A DNA stretch of 12,567 nucleotides from Promethearchaeota archaeon (lineage in GTDB: Archaea; Asgardarchaeota; Hermodarchaeia; Hermodarchaeales; Hermodarchaeaceae). A model generated the notes under the pieces. It made no database searches, had not been told where the DNA came from, and was given only the letters and a program-made list of their open reading frames with translations. The translations under genes and the position numbers were made by a program. This document shows positions 4,972 through 10,583 of this stretch, piece by piece (position 1 is the first letter of the stretch; each line of letters begins with the position of its first letter). The stretch is taken from contig JBHLPR010000066.1 in NCBI GenBank assembly GCA_048939245.1, forward strand, positions 1 through 12,567, written 5' to 3'.

Positions 4972-5187
4972 TTATCGTGCTGAGAGCTTCTTAATGATTT
5001 GAGGGCGTTCTTTATACATTATTCGTGCTCCACAGAATGGGCATTTGCTGGAAGGTAAGGTTGTGGCAAACGGCTTTCCGCAGTGGGGGCATCGATTGCT
5101 GGGTGGCATTGATGGGACGGGTGTTTGGCAATAGGGGCATGATAGGGTTTTTCCACATTTAGCGCATCGAAATGTAATCCTGAACAC
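4972..5187 (-). CDS. rpo12: RNA polymerase subunit Rpo12 (P) with an additional inserted zinc ribbon
   Basis: N-terminal FRCAKCGK and C-terminal KCPFCGARIMYKERPQIIKKLSAR match the RpoP/RPB12 pattern (CPxCGxRILxKxR). Two extra CxxC motifs lie in between. Confidence 0.88.
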   Translation of the reverse strand: MFRITFRCAKCGKTLSCPYCQTPVPSMPPSNRCPHCGKPFATTLPSSKCPFCGARIMYKERPQIIKKLSAR

Positions 5188-5226
5188 CTCGAAAAGTATG
5201 AACTACTAAAGGGCATCTCCTTTCGG

Positions 5227-5241
5227 TTAATAAATTTTGCT
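5227..5241 (-). promoter_or_regulatory. BRE/TATA promoter of rpo12
   Basis: AGCAAAA-TTTATTAA about 40 nt upstream of the GTG. Confidence 0.55.
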
Positions 5242-5250
5242 AAGTTTTAT

Positions 5251-5295
5251 CTTTAATCTCGAGAAGACCCGATCTTTCAGGGCGGGGTAGTTCAC
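5251..5295 (+). mobile_element. 45-bp minimal IS200/IS605-derived element (PATE-like; fused left and right ends sharing one hairpin)
   Basis: Preceded by TTAT. Starts CTTTAATCTCGAGAAGAC like the element at 6436 and ends TTCAGGGCGGGGTAGTTCAC like that element's right end. Confidence 0.8.
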
Positions 5296-5402
5296 GGCAA
5301 TATGAATGGAAGGCTGAGTAATATAATGCTTACAAATACGCTACCGATGATCAGAATGAGCAAAATTATTGCAATAATTAGATTTTGTTGTTTTTTCCTC
5401 AT
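5292..5402 (-). CDS. Unannotated 36-aa single-TM microprotein MRKKQQNLIIAIILLILIIGSVFVSIILLSLPFILP
   Basis: ATG overlaps the Get3 stop (TAATG). Basic N-terminus followed by one long hydrophobic helix. Fills the intergenic gap and is too short for the ORF track. Confidence 0.8.
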   Translation of the reverse strand: MRKKQQNLIIAIILLILIIGSVFVSIILLSLPFILP

Positions 5403-6388
5403 TATTTTTCACCATTTTCGGGAAGTACTCCAGTTCCTAATAGGTTTGAGAGTCGCTTCAATGATGGAATTCCTCGGATTTCTTCTTTGAATAAGGGAAT
5501 CTCGGTGATCATAAAATCGTCGTAGATGTCATGAATTTGTGTAAGGTATTGGAGTTGCATTGTCTTCCGAGCCTTACAGAAACTACAATCAGGTATGTCT
5601 GGAAAGATCATGTTTACGATGATATGACTACTGGGAATCTGATATTCATAAAGCGTTTGTAGAAGGCGTTCGGTCTCAGAAACTGCCATCGCTTCAGGGA
5701 TCATAATGATTACAAAGCTGGTTCTGGTGGGATCAGTGAGTTCTACTCTCGCCTCATTTATAGCGAGTTTCAATTTCTCGAGTTTTTCCAATGAATCGTC
5801 TTCTTCCTTCGAATTTCCTCGTCCAAAAAATGATTTCAATCGCCCGAACATGTTACTGAATCGTATTCGGAATTTGATGAGTTTTCCGAAGAAACTGTCA
5901 AGCATTTCTGGAAGACCTAAAAGGCGCAAGGTATGGCCAGTAGGAGCTGTATCAAAAATGACTAAATCGTAGTCGCATTCATGAATGAACTCTAAGACCT
6001 TGGAGAATGCTAAGGCTTCGTCAGATCCGGGTGCTGTCATATCCGCCAGATCTTCAACCCCCATCATATTCCCCATCGGGCCCATATCGCTTGTTTCCGG
6101 TTGTTGCGCCATCTCCTTATACTGCGCATAGGCTTTTTGTGGGTTGATTTCCATCCCAAAGAGGTTCTTCACTCCTTCAATTGGGACGACTTCGCCACCA
6201 CTGATATCTTGAGCAAAACAATCTCCCAGACTGTGCGCGGGGTCTGTACTTATTACAATGGTTTCTCGACCATGATCTGCTGCCCAAAGGGCTGATGCAG
6301 CTGCACTACTTGTTTTCCCTACTCCACCCTTTCCACCAAAGAGGAGAAATCGAAGCGTTTTCTTATCAAGCAAATCCACAAGCGTCAT
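5402..6388 (-). CDS. arsA: Get3/TRC40-like ArsA-family ATPase (single domain)
   Basis: Deviant P-loop GKGGVGKTS, switch I STDPAHSL, PGSDEA, switch II DTAPTGHT, Met-rich helical region, TRC40-insert-like amphipathic helix, CSFC dimer zinc motif, A-loop EEIRG. SD GGAG. Confidence 0.93.
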   Translation of the reverse strand: MTLVDLLDKKTLRFLLFGGKGGVGKTSSAAASALWAADHGRETIVISTDPAHSLGDCFAQDISGGEVVPIEGVKNLFGMEINPQKAYAQYKEMAQQPETSDMGPMGNMMGVEDLADMTAPGSDEALAFSKVLEFIHECDYDLVIFDTAPTGHTLRLLGLPEMLDSFFGKLIKFRIRFSNMFGRLKSFFGRGNSKEEDDSLEKLEKLKLAINEARVELTDPTRTSFVIIMIPEAMAVSETERLLQTLYEYQIPSSHIIVNMIFPDIPDCSFCKARKTMQLQYLTQIHDIYDDFMITEIPLFKEEIRGIPSLKRLSNLLGTGVLPENGEK

Positions 6389-6435
6389 AATTACAATTCT
6401 CCAGTTCTAAGATCCGATGGGGTTCCTTGGCTTAT

Positions 6436-6659
6436 CTTTATTCTCGAGAAGACTTGCCCTTTGAGGACGGGGATGACTCGAGGAGCTTAAATACATTTTT
6501 ACTCATCCTCTCGCTGAGGTCTTAGTCTCCGCGCCGAGAACCAAGGCATCGGGCTGATTGGGTAACATCGCTGGAACGGTGAGTAGAGCCTGTGGACCAG
6601 TCGACCCGAGTCGATGGCATGAAGCAGGAAGCCCCACTCTTCAGGGTGGAGTAGTTCAC
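6436..6659 (+). mobile_element. 224-bp non-autonomous IS200/IS605 (IS1341/TnpB-type) element without transposase
   Basis: TTAT target at 6432-6435. Left-end hairpin CTTGCCCT-TTG-AGGACGGG followed by GATGA. Right end GAAG-CCCCACTCTTCAGGGTGGAG-TAGTTCAC. Ends are shared with the copy at 5251. Confidence 0.85.
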
Positions 6660-6675
6660 AGCCTTATCTTGCACC
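6517..6675 (+). ncRNA. TnpB omega-RNA (reRNA)-like scaffold plus flank-derived guide; 5' end approximate
   Basis: GCCTGTGGA..ATGAAGCAGGAAGCCCC motif typical of tnpB 3' ends, CCTG/CAGG stem, TCGAC/GTCGA hairpin, terminal hairpin, TGAA(6620-23)/TTCA(6655-58) pseudoknot potential, and an internal TATA CTTAAATA at 6486-6493. Confidence 0.65.
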
Positions 6676-6677
6676 AA

Positions 6678-7043
6678 TTATGGGGGTATTGGGCCAATAA
6701 GTTGACTAACGGCTAGGAGCGCATAGAACAAAACTACAAAAATTGCCACGAGTGTTACAGCCCCGACTACAAATATTGAATATCGCATGCGGATTAATCC
6801 CCCGATTAATCCTGCAAACATAATAATGAGAAGTGCGATGAAGGTGATTACTGCATCCCAAGTTGGGAGAAGTGATTGAATGGGTTCTACTACCACAAAT
6901 GGGTATAATCCATAGCTATATGCTAATACTAAATATCCTAAGGCTCCACCGAATACAAAGAAAAGAATCGTTGCGAGTTGATCCAGGGGTTCTTTCGGCT
7001 CCTCTTCTTCTATTTCAGTATCGGTATCAGTAACGGTTTCCAT
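6678..7043 (-). CDS. Small three-TM membrane protein with acidic N-terminal tail (possible EMC6/Get2-like)
   Basis: N-terminus ETVTDTDTEIEEEEPKEP followed by three hydrophobic segments. The family guess rests only on topology and context. Confidence 0.7.
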   Translation of the reverse strand: METVTDTDTEIEEEEPKEPLDQLATILFFVFGGALGYLVLAYSYGLYPFVVVEPIQSLLPTWDAVITFIALLIIMFAGLIGGLIRMRYSIFVVGAVTLVAIFVVLFYALLAVSQLIGPIPP

Positions 7044-7049
7044 TTTCTC

Positions 7050-7763
7050 TTATTCTCCGGCAGGTTTGTAGATGACAAGGCATATAGGTACATTTGCTGT
7101 TGCCCAGTTTTGGTATTTGCCTTCGTACTTCAAACCATAATCACGTTGTCCTTGATTACCGAGGATAAGAAAAAGTGTATTGGCTCTGGCTTGTTTATAG
7201 AATCCGAGAAGCCATCTGTCTGTCCGGTGAAGTAATTTCTGCGCTAGTTCCAATGGGGGACGGCTAGTATGCTCTTTATAGAGGGTATCGAAATCTAAGA
7301 AGTGGATGTAGAGTAAATCGGAGCGATTGAGAAGTTTTGCGGTTTCAATATAGGTCCGCATATCACTATCCGCTGAGTGGAATTTTGCTTGGCCTGCAAT
7401 GTATTGTTGATTTTCGCGGTCTACAAGAACAGCTGATTTTCCTTGGTGAACAAGAAAGGAGAAGAGATTGAATCCATCGGATTGATTCCCATGGATGAGC
7501 TCATTGATTACGTTTGTAGCATATCCGTCCTTTGTGTCCAACGTTAATAGCAAACGGGCTTCTTTGAGTAAAAATTGAGGCTTATGTAAGGCAACCTCAA
7601 GCAGTCCAAAATTGTCAAGATGTACCAATACTACACGTTCTGTGGGTGCAAAAGCGGATAAATTGATACTTTGAGCTAACACTGTAGGTGCTATTAGTCC
7701 TAATCGATTTAAAATCGTGGCTGGCATCTGTACCATTTGCCCATCAACGTTATCAAATGACAC
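7050..7763 (-). CDS. Alkaline-phosphatase-superfamily-fold protein with degenerate metal ligands
   Basis: RVVLVHLDNFG, LLYIHFLDFD, LFLILGNQG and VPICLV occur in AP/NPP core-strand order. Start re-called to the GTG at 7763 (GGCGGGA upstream). The ORF-track start is 7871. Confidence 0.6.
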   Translation of the reverse strand: MSFDNVDGQMVQMPATILNRLGLIAPTVLAQSINLSAFAPTERVVLVHLDNFGLLEVALHKPQFLLKEARLLLTLDTKDGYATNVINELIHGNQSDGFNLFSFLVHQGKSAVLVDRENQQYIAGQAKFHSADSDMRTYIETAKLLNRSDLLYIHFLDFDTLYKEHTSRPPLELAQKLLHRTDRWLLGFYKQARANTLFLILGNQGQRDYGLKYEGKYQNWATANVPICLVIYKPAGE

Positions 7764-7867
7764 TATATTCCCGCCGATTTGCGACTTAAAATCTATTCTA
7801 GCTCTCTTATGATTACCTAAAAGAGTTTGTTGACACAAAATTGCGTGAAAGTGATACTGCGGTAATC

Positions 7868-9049
7868 TCAAATAGGCATTAGTACGAGAATAAAGACAAA
7901 AAATTGCATCAATAATATCATTATCCCTTCAAAGATGTCAACTTTCTGGTCATCATTTAGAGCGCGTATTAAGAACCATAATGATCCAGCTGCTGTCGCA
8001 AATTGTAATAGCACTGCAGCATCTAATGGGAGTGGGAGAAACATTGCTACACCACCTACGATAAGAAGAAGCACTTGGGTGGTTCCGCCTAAAGTATTGC
8101 CAATTGCGATGTCAGCTTTACTTTTTGTTGCTGCGATAATAGCGATGCCATGTTCAGGAACAGCCCCAGCTGCTCCAATTATTAGTGCCATAATCGCGAT
8201 TCGCTGGGTTTCGACGACTCCGATTGCAGACCAGGGAACAAAATCAAATGTTAGTTCCACTGCTTGTGAGAGCAGATAGCCTGCGATGAAAATTCCTACA
8301 AACCCTATGGCTGCTAGTACAACTGAATTTCGCTTAGAGTGTCGAGGCTCGGGGCGTATCTTGTCTTTTTCTGCGGGCTTTTTGACTGCGTATACTGCGT
8401 ATAGGGCATAGGAGAGAACCATAAGGAATGCAAGAACGGGAGGAAGAAAAGTGAGTTCCAAAGTAACACCATAAATGAGTTGGTTAACATAATGAAGGAT
8501 TCCAAACACAACAAGAAGGGCCATGGCTACTATTGTCCAACGTATGAGATCAGCATCGTCTTCGACAACTTCACGGGGAACGGTTATGTGTCCGGTTTTT
8601 CGTGTTGAAAGTACCACAACTATACCAAGTAATAAGATGTTGAAGCCTGCAGCCATAATTACACTCAATACCGCAATTTCAACCAACTCAGGGCTTGCCG
8701 TCAGGTATCCTCTCCAAGCCGTTAGGGCGCTGACAACAGCCTCAGGTGTATTAGAGGCGAGTGATGAAACGACTCCGATGAAATATGCACTCAACCCAAC
8801 AATGGCTCCCAATGATTCTAAACCATCAATGGCAAGATGAGAAGACCGAAATGTCAGCCAGACAGCAAATGCCATGGTTCCAATAATTAATATCAACACA
8901 TTTTGTAATACGAAAACAGAGAGAAGGAAAAAAATGAAAAGCGTAATGGCAACGACAACTTCTCTTCGTGAGATATGAAAGGCTTTGTGTAACGCAGATT
9001 CGCTCGTTAATATGTGTGTGTCCTTTTCATTGGTGTTGGTTTCAGTCAA
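7868..9049 (-). CDS. Ca2+/cation antiporter (CaCA family, CAX/ChaA-like)
   Basis: About 11-12 TM segments, alpha-1 repeat SSLASNTPE, alpha-2 repeat AAGAVPEH..DIAIGNTLGG, C-terminal FEGIMILL. Confidence 0.85.
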   Translation of the reverse strand: MTETNTNEKDTHILTSESALHKAFHISRREVVVAITLFIFFLLSVFVLQNVLILIIGTMAFAVWLTFRSSHLAIDGLESLGAIVGLSAYFIGVVSSLASNTPEAVVSALTAWRGYLTASPELVEIAVLSVIMAAGFNILLLGIVVVLSTRKTGHITVPREVVEDDADLIRWTIVAMALLVVFGILHYVNQLIYGVTLELTFLPPVLAFLMVLSYALYAVYAVKKPAEKDKIRPEPRHSKRNSVVLAAIGFVGIFIAGYLLSQAVELTFDFVPWSAIGVVETQRIAIMALIIGAAGAVPEHGIAIIAATKSKADIAIGNTLGGTTQVLLLIVGGVAMFLPLPLDAAVLLQFATAAGSLWFLIRALNDDQKVDIFEGIMILLMQFFVFILVLMPI

Positions 9050-9065: not shown

Positions 9066-10583
9066 CTAGAATTGTTCTGTTTCGGTCAGTGTCTGGAGGA
9101 GCATTCCTTCTACTGTGAAAGGCATTAAGCTTTTGGCAACATCAATGGCATCACTAAGTTTACTTTCGGTTTCTGCATGAATTGTAAGGACGGAATCTCC
9201 TTCTTTCACCCGTGTGCCTACTTTAGCATGTAAATAGAGACCCGCGCTATGAATCTTGGGGGTTCCAGCCGCTCTTGCAATACGAACTAGTGCTCGGTTG
9301 TGTAGAGTTGCTACATATCCGTCAGAGGGAGCGCATAAATTATGGGTGTGGGATCCTATGGGAATATCTTCTGGTTTGATATCAGGTTTACCATTTTGGG
9401 CTTCGATAATTTCGCGCATTTTTTCTAAGGCTTTACCAGAAACTAAAATATCCTTCGCCATTTTTCGTCCTCCGCCTCGAGCCGCGAGACCACCCATTTC
9501 AAGTAGAATTCCCGCTAATCCGGTCGATTTCTCGATTAGGCTCGTGGGGCCTCCACCCATGAGGGTTTCTAAAGCTTCTTTCGCTTCAAGCGCGGGTCCG
9601 ATGGCATGTCCCACCGGTTGACTTCCATACGTCATGGCGCAATGAATATTGATGCCCAGCTCATTCCCCACAGTTATGAAATCATGACTTAATTTTCTGG
9701 CTTCTTCCATGGTGGTCACTTTGCATCCTTCACCTGTGGGAATATCCAACACTAAGTATTGGATTCCGGTAGAGAGTTTCTTGGCCATAATTGATGCAAT
9801 CATTTGGGGTCGTGGGTCAAGCTGTAGGGGGTGTTCAATTTGAATAAAGAGATCGTCTGCCGGTGCGAGATTTAATGATCCACCCCAGACAATAGCCGCT
9901 TTAGCGGTTTCTATGATTTTTTGTAGCTCATCTACAGTAAATTCGACATCAGCAAGAACTTCCATGGTGTCTGCGGTTCCGCTGGGACTAGTAATTGCTC
10001 GGCTACTTGTTTTTGGAATCAGTAGTCCTGCTGCTGCAACAATAGGGACAATGATTAGTGAAACCTTGTTACCTGGAACTCCACCAATGCTATGCTTATC
10101 AAATACATTAGCACCAAAATCCAGCCGTTCTCCTTCTTCTGCTATGGCTCGAGTAAGGTGTACAGTCTCCTCTAAAGACAACCCCCTAATCTGTTCGGAG
10201 ACCAAAAATGCTGCAATATCAATGTCTAATAGGCGGCCTGTTACCAAATCCTCAACGATTGCTTTGATTTCCTCACTATCTAAGCTGAACCCTTCAACCT
10301 TTTTTCGAATTGCCTTAATAGAGGTGGGTTTAACATCGCTGGTAACTTCTACAAAGTCTCCTTCTTTGACATTTAATTCTCGTTGCACCTCATTTAGTAT
10401 GCCCACTTTGCCTTGGTCAACCAAAGAGGTAGATTCGGCAATTGCGACAGTTTCTTCCTTCCGAAATTTTAGTAGCACGCGTTCTCCTGCAAACATCGCT
10501 AAATGGGTTATCTCAACAGGATTGAGGAAGATTTTATGCACGCCGCCTGTGTCAACATCAAGAATTTGTACTTTTAATTTCAA
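9066..10583 (-). CDS. deoA: AMP phosphorylase (archaeal thymidine-phosphorylase family)
   Basis: DKHSIGGVPGNK, PKTSSRAITSPSGTADTMEVLA, LAPADD, SIMAKK, QPVGHAIGPALEA, and the extra N-terminal domain of AMP phosphorylases. TTG start with AGGAG SD. Confidence 0.95.
   Translation of the reverse strand: MKLKVQILDVDTGGVHKIFLNPVEITHLAMFAGERVLLKFRKEETVAIAESTSLVDQGKVGILNEVQRELNVKEGDFVEVTSDVKPTSIKAIRKKVEGFSLDSEEIKAIVEDLVTGRLLDIDIAAFLVSEQIRGLSLEETVHLTRAIAEEGERLDFGANVFDKHSIGGVPGNKVSLIIVPIVAAAGLLIPKTSSRAITSPSGTADTMEVLADVEFTVDELQKIIETAKAAIVWGGSLNLAPADDLFIQIEHPLQLDPRPQMIASIMAKKLSTGIQYLVLDIPTGEGCKVTTMEEARKLSHDFITVGNELGINIHCAMTYGSQPVGHAIGPALEAKEALETLMGGGPTSLIEKSTGLAGILLEMGGLAARGGGRKMAKDILVSGKALEKMREIIEAQNGKPDIKPEDIPIGSHTHNLCAPSDGYVATLHNRALVRIARAAGTPKIHSAGLYLHAKVGTRVKEGDSVLTIHAETESKLSDAIDVAKSLMPFTVEGMLLQTLTETEQF

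Follow-up and report, generated by a model that had tools for sequence, protein, structure and literature searches.

In the present study we have analysed a 12,567-nt contig (JBHLPR010000066.1) from a Promethearchaeota archaeon of the Hermod group, called here in its whole length the window, and have compared the surroundings of its get3 gene with those of other Asgard archaea. Our results show that three conserved genes are linked to get3 in the genomes of several Asgard classes, and that these code for a 121-aa protein with three transmembrane (TM) segments, for a single-TM microprotein of 36 aa and for a soluble protein of 237 aa. Get3 is an ATPase of the cytosol that covers the hydrophobic tails of tail-anchored proteins and delivers these proteins to the membrane, and the best reading of our data is that the 3-TM protein and the microprotein are non-homologous membrane-side partners or clients of this ATPase. 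As small membrane proteins that are strictly linked to get3, they offer concrete and cheap candidates for the membrane-side partners of archaeal Get3. We found no published description of get3-linked membrane genes in Asgard archaea in the full-text literature, although the supplements of comparative-genomics papers and subscription journals lay outside this search and could hold one. Newly added here are a positive control built on EMC6-like proteins and two observations on linkage: in four families the 3-TM gene is strictly adjacent to get3, and the 237-aa gene is widely linked to get3.

Genes linked to get3 in Asgard archaea

The window corresponds to contig C78 of genome G000, a 2.52-Mb Asgard metagenome-assembled genome that is 88% complete. 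Near-identical proteins in the databases are labelled Hermodarchaeia, Hermodarchaeota or Promethearchaeota. An earlier note, made from the letters of this DNA, had pointed to three open reading frames (ORFs) on its minus strand as a candidate GET-like locus: 6678-7043 (121 aa), 5402-6388 (the 328-aa ATPase) and 5292-5402 (36 aa). The trio is real and lies at those positions, whereas a fourth gene of the module, the 237-aa gene at 7050-7763 (also minus strand), and the insertion of a repeat in the spacer upstream of get3 had been overlooked. The note had named a lack of conservation of the neighbours as a finding that would speak against its proposal; what we found across the Asgard genomes is that both small membrane genes are kept beside get3 in several lineages. 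For this comparison, we collected the get3 loci of 94 relatives together with flanks of about 1.3-1.5 kb on either side. Ninety loci, the window included, had a recognisable intact Get3 ORF, and the loci in which none was recognised under the search pattern (L022, L023, L119, L120 and L121) were left out.

The 3-TM gene is the neighbour most strictly tied to get3. The profile of its family matches 31 of 201 Asgard genomes, which fall in four families: Hermod (f1; 18/18 and the window's genome), Jordarchaeales (f7; 4/5), Freyarchaeota (f18; 5/6) and f20 (3/3). The other 23 Asgard families in this set of genomes gave no match. When the coordinates of the profile matches were compared by eye with those of Get3, the gene adjoined get3 in 28 of the 31 genomes and stood at a contig end in the other three (G010, G015 and G076); apart from these contig-end cases, no 3-TM gene away from get3 was found among the 201 genomes. 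In Hermod, Jordarchaeales and f20 it lies upstream of get3 on the same strand, with gaps of ~40-120 nt (~600 nt in G086), and in the Freyarchaeia it is convergent with get3, while the outer flanks of the Hermod loci on one side and of the Jord and Frey loci on the other are entirely different.

Two get3 loci of the Jord type deserve separate mention. In G024 (Jordarchaeales; L027/L150) the 237-aa gene stands head-to-head with get3 across a 243-nt gap and no 3-TM ORF is present, unlike in the four other family members, which looks like a loss of the gene. Locus L087 (G086:C2, JAPDJY010000030.1) has a get3 neighbourhood of the Jord type in a record titled 'Thermoproteota archaeon'; this label looks outdated, because the record is filed in the same phylum as the window and because of that neighbourhood.

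The 237-aa gene is the most widely get3-linked neighbour. Its family is single-copy and present in 130 of the 201 Asgard genomes, and in 36 of the 90 loci get3 is no more than ~1.3 kb away from the gene (14/14 in Hermod, 16/17 in Thor, 5/5 in Jord and 1/1 in Frey), which is on the same strand as get3 in all 14 Hermod loci and head-to-head with it in 16 of the 17 Thor loci. In the Thor genomes for which both coordinates are listed, the two genes are less than 700 nt apart in 36 of 39, 1.7 kb apart in one and on different contigs in two, as judged by eye. The distance grows to ~4 kb in Odin (f2) and ~7 kb in f20, and the genes are unlinked in f9 and f15. In the window the 237-aa gene ends 6 nt before the 3-TM gene. 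The listed ORF with a TTG start (7050-7871) is probably too long, and we prefer the GTG start that gives 7050-7763; the product can then be aligned over its full length with orthologues of 237 aa (58 invariant columns among 11 sequences of three classes). This protein, which we filed as the A6 family, had no match in Pfam, NCBIfam or the PDB sequences. Its feature neighbours in the ESM Atlas are small clusters of the alkaline-phosphatase family (score 0.95, 180/256 features), but the PF01663 model did not match it, and hhalign gave a probability of 0.5% against the genome's own PF01663 protein, so that a link to the alkaline-phosphatase superfamily is a lead only.

The microprotein gene directly follows get3: in the window, the stop codon of get3 and the start codon of the microprotein share one base (TAATG). 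In 36 of the 90 loci, a family profile found a microprotein ORF of 32-39 aa that begins within a few nt of the get3 stop, comprising 14/14 in Hermod, 17/17 in Thor (f6), 4/4 in Baldr (f14) and 1/1 in f26. Searched genome-wide, strong matches occur in 17/18 genomes of f1 and in the window's genome, in 41/43 of f6, in 4/4 of f14 and in 1/1 of f26, and they abut get3 wherever Get3 coordinates are listed. Most of these loci carry a Shine-Dalgarno-like motif upstream of the microprotein, GGTGA in Hermod or GGAGG in Thor. Members of the family have 3-6 K/R in the first ten residues, one hydrophobic helix and a short end that mostly terminates in Pro or Gly, and a Ser in the middle of the helix is invariant in 27 sequences; the protein of the window has 3 K/R within its first 10 residues and, by a hydropathy script, a TM segment at residues 9-27 of 36, which would leave a cytosolic part of ~8 residues; in hydropathy and charge it is compatible with the tail-anchored class. 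Among 15 Thor microprotein genes the pairwise differences, counted over pairs that are not independent, are 1320/779/2065 at codon positions 1/2/3, and this order of 3>1>2 is a coding-type pattern of substitution. An ORF behind get3 in f5 (G022) looked alike and was tried as a further member, but the family profile did not reach E<=1e-3 with it and it was therefore not counted.

Hermod is the only family with all three neighbours. On a Get3 tree of 90 rows, built quickly and rooted at the midpoint, the lineages that bear the 3-TM gene form at least three blocks (f1; f20, sister to the Odin group, which is without the 3-TM gene; and f7+f18), and the microprotein groups form three (f26+f6; f14; f1). 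To account for this pattern, the genes must either be old and have been lost in places or have been gained more than once, and in both cases adjacency to get3 has been kept through rearrangements.

The ATPase and the three-TM protein

Judged by its sequence, the ATPase encoded at 5402-6388 is an ordinary, genuine archaeal Get3. PF02374 is matched with 312 bits (cut-off 24.3; 5e-93) as one domain over the 328 aa, and TIGR00345, the TRC40/GET3/ArsA subfamily model, with 306 bits against a cut-off of 135, while the ArsA equivalog TIGR04291 gives only 148 bits against a cut-off of 650. The tandem algal ArsA1 (5zme) heads the matches among all sequences of solved structures. The best single-domain matches, both full length, are two archaeal Get3 proteins for which binding of tail-anchored clients is known, those of Methanothermobacter thermautotrophicus (3zq6; 4e-79, 269 bits) and Methanocaldococcus jannaschii (3ug6; 2e-77, 264 bits), followed by fungal and human Get3/TRC40 (1e-65 to 1e-54), whereas E. 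coli ArsA (1f48; 3e-40, 142 bits) aligns with residues 14-168 only, about half of the protein. These results bear out the preference of the earlier note for Get3 over an ArsA pump, as well as its description of a single-domain ATPase with a CxxC at 5576-5587 and a Met-rich region. The CxxC, which in Get3/TRC40 is the zinc motif of dimerisation, is CSFC, residues 268-271, and is aligned with the CEFC of 3zq6; residues 80-125 hold 6 Met, including the motif MGPMGNMMG; and residues 166-192 (FFGKLIKFRIRF...) can be aligned, with no large gap, to the matching region of the M. thermautotrophicus protein. The window's genome has one Get3-type gene copy (E<=1e-20).

Orthologues of this ATPase carry the database names 'ArsA family ATPase' or 'arsenite-transporting ATPase', and such names would suit the catalytic subunit of an arsenite or metalloid pump. 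We regard this identity as extremely improbable and rejected it. ArsA has tandem ATPase domains and belongs to an ars operon; the protein described here has a single domain and a CxxC, it falls far below the equivalog cut-off and aligns with E. coli ArsA over part of its length only, and a Pfam and/or NCBIfam scan of the 15 larger ORFs of the window detected no arsB, acr3, arsD or arsR, in agreement with what the earlier note had said of the surroundings. With the two archaeal Get3 proteins of known structure and with eukaryotic Get3/TRC40 it shares the P-loop, the switch motifs, the position of the CxxC and the Met-rich segment with the putative insert region, and nothing essential differs; the difference lies in the conserved set of neighbours, which we did not find described for the organisms of 3zq6 and 3ug6. 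That archaea possess Get3 proteins is already known (PMC6593721).

The 3-TM protein (6678-7043, minus strand) has TM segments at residues 23-41, 66-84 and 92-110, as assigned by the hydropathy script. Its N-terminal tail carries 10 D/E and 1 K/R within 22 residues, and this acidic character is conserved in the family, with medians of 22 residues, 8 D/E and 1 K/R in 28 sequences. The family shares a G-[LIM]-[YF]-P-[FW] motif after TM1, which in the window reads GLYPF and lies in a TM1-TM2 loop of ~24 mostly hydrophobic residues, and a short R-x-R/K-Y loop after TM2. By the positive-inside rule, the N-tail and the R-x-R/K-Y loop are predicted to face the cytosol, the short basic R-x-R-Y being the only predicted cytosolic loop besides the tail. 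No Pfam or NCBIfam family includes the protein. A word-based search returned 41 proteins, all of 116-123 aa and with 'hypothetical protein' as every given name, and a profile search run exhaustively over 1.84 billion cluster representatives returned 8 at E<=1e-3, six of which are full-length members. Features in the ESM Atlas were uninformative (best score 0.88, with unnamed bacterial and viral clusters).

Could this protein be a relative of EMC6 or of the Get1/Get2 receptor? Lewis and Hegde (2021) report that each archaeon has one EMC6-like protein pairing with YidC/DUF106, that no GET2 homologue is detectable, and that GET2 may derive from an archaeal EMC6-like protein (PMC8675477). The earlier note had put forward a relation of the 3-TM protein to EMC6 or to Get2/CAML. 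In the window's genome, the EMC6-like gene is a separate one, located on C26 (118 aa; PF07019 22 bits against a cut-off of 23.3, with the whole model covered); across the genome PF07019 rings only there and, weakly, at C9, and the DUF106/YidC gene, coding for a member of the Oxa1 superfamily, stands beside secY on C44. As a positive control, a profile of 21 Asgard EMC6-like sequences matched OPTI (7tut chain 9) at 7e-12 and EMC6 at 6e-4 to 4e-3, and the approach is therefore able to see the relationship of the archaeal EMC6-like proteins to OPTI and EMC6. With the 3-TM family, in contrast, no Pfam family, PF07019 included, was reached at E<=10 by any of 22 members; the family profile run against all PDB sequences had its best match at E 2.4 (a sodium-channel subunit), with no match to EMC6 or OPTI; and hhalign against the Asgard EMC6-like family gave a probability of 2.7%. 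The Pfam models GET2 (PF08690) and Get2_like (PF14963) had no match in the genome, a weak test given that these eukaryotic models ring in no or almost no control genome, and PF04420 (CHD5, Get1/WRB) gave only matches with E>1 elsewhere in the genome and none at the locus, which is again a weak test. Sequence comparison does not support homology of the 3-TM protein to EMC6, Get2 or Get1, and we have set it aside as a candidate.

An extremely diverged homologue, that is, a get3-linked paralogue of the EMC6-like partner of YidC and in this sense a proto-Get2, would nevertheless resemble what we see in some respects. EMC6, OPTI (C20orf24) and the archaeal EMC6-like proteins are of the same size class (~110-120 aa) and also have three TM helices, the predicted N-in outline is that of EMC6 and of the membrane domain of Get2, and the origin of GET2 proposed by Lewis and Hegde (PMC8675477) would provide a route. 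Against this stand the null searches just described, in which the control worked, and the silence of the GET2, Get2_like and CHD5 models at the locus, weak tests as they are. Moreover, Get2 binds Get3 through a basic motif but the tail of the 3-TM protein is acidic, a discrepancy to which the earlier note had itself drawn attention and which holds for the whole family. We consider true homology quite improbable. The negative result matters in its own right, since the idea of the 3-TM neighbour as a proto-Get2 or EMC6 is unsupported and the canonical EMC6-like and YidC genes sit elsewhere. With the Get1/Get2 (WRB/CAML) receptor of eukaryotic Get3 the 3-TM protein has in common that it is a small three-TM protein with a charged, putatively cytosolic N-tail, encoded with Get3, which would tether Get3 as Get2 does. 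It differs in the charge of that tail, in the lack of a detectable sequence relation, and in the confinement of its family to four Asgard families; from Get1/WRB it also differs in giving no match to the CHD5 model, in its TM1-TM2 loop and in that the Oxa1-superfamily member of the genome is the DUF106 protein.

Possible roles of the membrane proteins in Get3 function

Archaeal Get3 proteins bind tail-anchored proteins in vitro. Two papers state that such a Get3 exists in archaea but that its membrane side is unknown, as is whether the pathway works there and through which receptor (PMC5868721, PMC6593721). We propose that the conserved neighbours act with Get3. The 3-TM protein would sit in the membrane with its acidic N-tail of ~22 residues in the cytosol as a docking site for Get3, and would therefore have the function of the Get2/CAML tether without being homologous to it. 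The microprotein would be made in step with Get3 through translational coupling and may serve as a stoichiometric membrane partner or as a dedicated minimal tail-anchored client. Insertion would be carried out by the canonical YidC/DUF106 and EMC6-like pair, an insertase that is available because both genes exist elsewhere in the genome. While the linkage itself is observed, we infer the docking role, the topology and every contact, and we hold this partner role tentatively, as a possibility that approaches an even chance without reaching it.

Several points weigh against such a role. In 45 of the 90 get3 loci all three neighbours are absent from the surrounding ~1.3 kb, and Get3 therefore clearly works without them. 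These loci belong to 16 other families, among which are, by database labels, Odin, Wukong, Heimdall, Borr/Sif and Hod-labelled groups. The distributions of the three neighbours are patchy and overlap only partly, and where lineages are related, the linkage of their genes does not count as independent evidence. The tail of the 3-TM protein has the opposite charge to the motif with which Get2 binds Get3. The 3-TM gene and get3 need not be co-transcribed, and in the window their co-transcription is doubtful because a promoter-like box and a 229-nt repeat insertion lie between the two genes. Finally, the Freyarchaeia seem to have microprotein-like ORFs that are unlinked to get3, as would suit a protein with a job of its own.

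Some of these facts could also mean that the linkage is only historical, the neighbours having been co-inherited without a shared function: the lineages all fall within a single phylum, half of the get3 loci are without any of the three genes, and get3 apparently has its own promoter. We find this improbable. The adjacency of the 3-TM gene to get3 has outlasted the inversion to a convergent arrangement in the Freyarchaeia, the separation from the 237-aa gene by ~7 kb in f20 and the full turnover of the outer flanks between Hermod and Jord, this gene is found nowhere else in the 201 genomes, and the microprotein keeps either the start/stop overlap or a spacing of a few nt.

The unlinked ORFs just mentioned were seen in three genomes of the Freyarchaeia, G053, G044 and G076, as weak microprotein-like matches (E 5e-5 to 7e-4) far from get3, at L147:995-1111(-), L148:154-243(+) and L149:989-1087(+). 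They read RRKILAI...LLF[LI]G[ST]..., and each lies between the genes of a conserved ~289-aa protein and of a small GTPase of the Ras superfamily.

Tail-anchored clients of Get3 include Sec61-beta, and the small membrane proteins of the locus might likewise be clients of Get3 instead of machinery, the microprotein as a minimal tail-anchored protein captured as it is made and the 3-TM protein as one that is just made nearby. The microprotein is built like a Get3 substrate, in that its short N-terminus would lie in the cytosol and its single C-terminal TM helix would be followed by a very short exoplasmic end, and its length does not suffice for co-translational capture; the occurrence of similar ORFs apart from get3 in the three Frey genomes, in a conserved position, points the same way. 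These unlinked matches are weak, however, and the client role leaves unexplained the invariant Ser in the middle of the helix and the tight translational coupling across four families. Compared with minimal tail-anchored proteins, the microprotein is set apart by a predicted cytosolic part of only 8-10 residues, by the coupling of its gene to get3 and by a polar residue that is invariant within the helix. The 3-TM protein, in turn, is not a classical Get3 client, although no other neighbour is linked to get3 so strictly. A pure client role seems unlikely to us, although it is the alternative to the partner role that we take most seriously.

A more far-reaching version of the partner role would be that Asgard archaea evolved a Get3 receptor of their own, unrelated to Get1/Get2. 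In it, the 3-TM protein would be the tether through its acidic tail, the microprotein a second subunit whose invariant Ser packs helix on helix, and the 237-aa protein a cytosolic cofactor (possibly with a degenerate alkaline-phosphatase fold), and clients would be handed to the YidC/DUF106-EMC6-like insertase. We regard this full scheme as rather unlikely. If true, it would give an archaeal GET-like pathway its first membrane-side machinery, and the eukaryotic Get1/2 receptor would have replaced, and not descended from, what is in use in archaea closely related to eukaryotes. Of the four genes of the module, two are very small and are easily missed by gene callers.

The spacer upstream of get3 and the flanking genes

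The spacer between the 3-TM gene and get3 has 290 nt in the window and ~65 nt in relatives. Its length is accounted for by a low-copy repeat of ~229 nt (6432-6660), specific to the window's genome, which is inserted just upstream of the GATAAG box described below, so that the 290-nt length is not native; the relatives are without the insert, and the insertion leaves the gene content of the locus unchanged. Further copies lie in the same genome at C19:9024-9253 (77% identical over 229 nt) and C69:458-583 (81%). A 57-nt version at 5247-5303, directly after the microprotein stop, is made of the two ends of the repeat with the middle absent (repeat families D2 and D7) and matches the 6432-6472 end of the long copy. 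All copies contain a small hairpin with compensatory changes (CCAC/GTGG, CCCG/CGGG, CTCAC/GTGAG). We had also entertained a structured RNA in the spacer. This candidate was rejected in favour of the low-copy repeat, as no Rfam family reached the gathering score there, the best matches by E-value in 5150-6750 being chance-level snoRNA and miRNA models, none of them in the spacer, and as the folding energy is no better than that of shuffled sequences on either strand (z-scores 0.09 and 0.18).

The native leader of get3 (6389-6431, minus strand) has an SD-like GGAG and, at its upstream edge, the promoter-like GATAAG box. A GATAAG-(N)-CT(A/T)TAAGC box ~50-60 nt before the get3 ATG and a GGAG ~10 nt before it (6389-6445 in the window) are conserved in relatives of the same Hermod genus and family (e.g. 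L011, L009 and L010), and these elements are probably get3's own promoter, with a transcription factor B recognition element and TATA box (BRE/TATA), and its ribosome-binding site. Because get3 probably has its own promoter, get3 and the microprotein may form a transcription unit separate from that of the 237-aa and 3-TM genes.

No tRNA was detected in the whole window by ARAGORN or by Rfam at the gathering score. Upstream of the 237-aa gene, on the minus strand, lie a gene for a membrane protein of the Na/Ca-exchanger type (7868-9049) and one for AMP phosphorylase (9066-10583). Downstream of the microprotein, the same strand carries a gene for a 71-aa double zinc-ribbon protein (4972-5187), followed further on by SUI1 and histidyl-tRNA synthetase (HisRS) genes. 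The 71-aa protein has four CxxC pairs and matches the Pfam double zinc ribbon with 27.3 bits, at the cut-off, and the ribbon of the RNA polymerase 7-kDa subunit with a sub-threshold 18.9 bits; in relatives an 81-aa counterpart lies downstream of the microprotein. At 76-2660, again on the minus strand, four tightly packed genes code for a DUF4430 protein, a 244-aa protein without a family, the S component of an ECF transporter and a DUF4443/PH0730-like DNA-binding protein.

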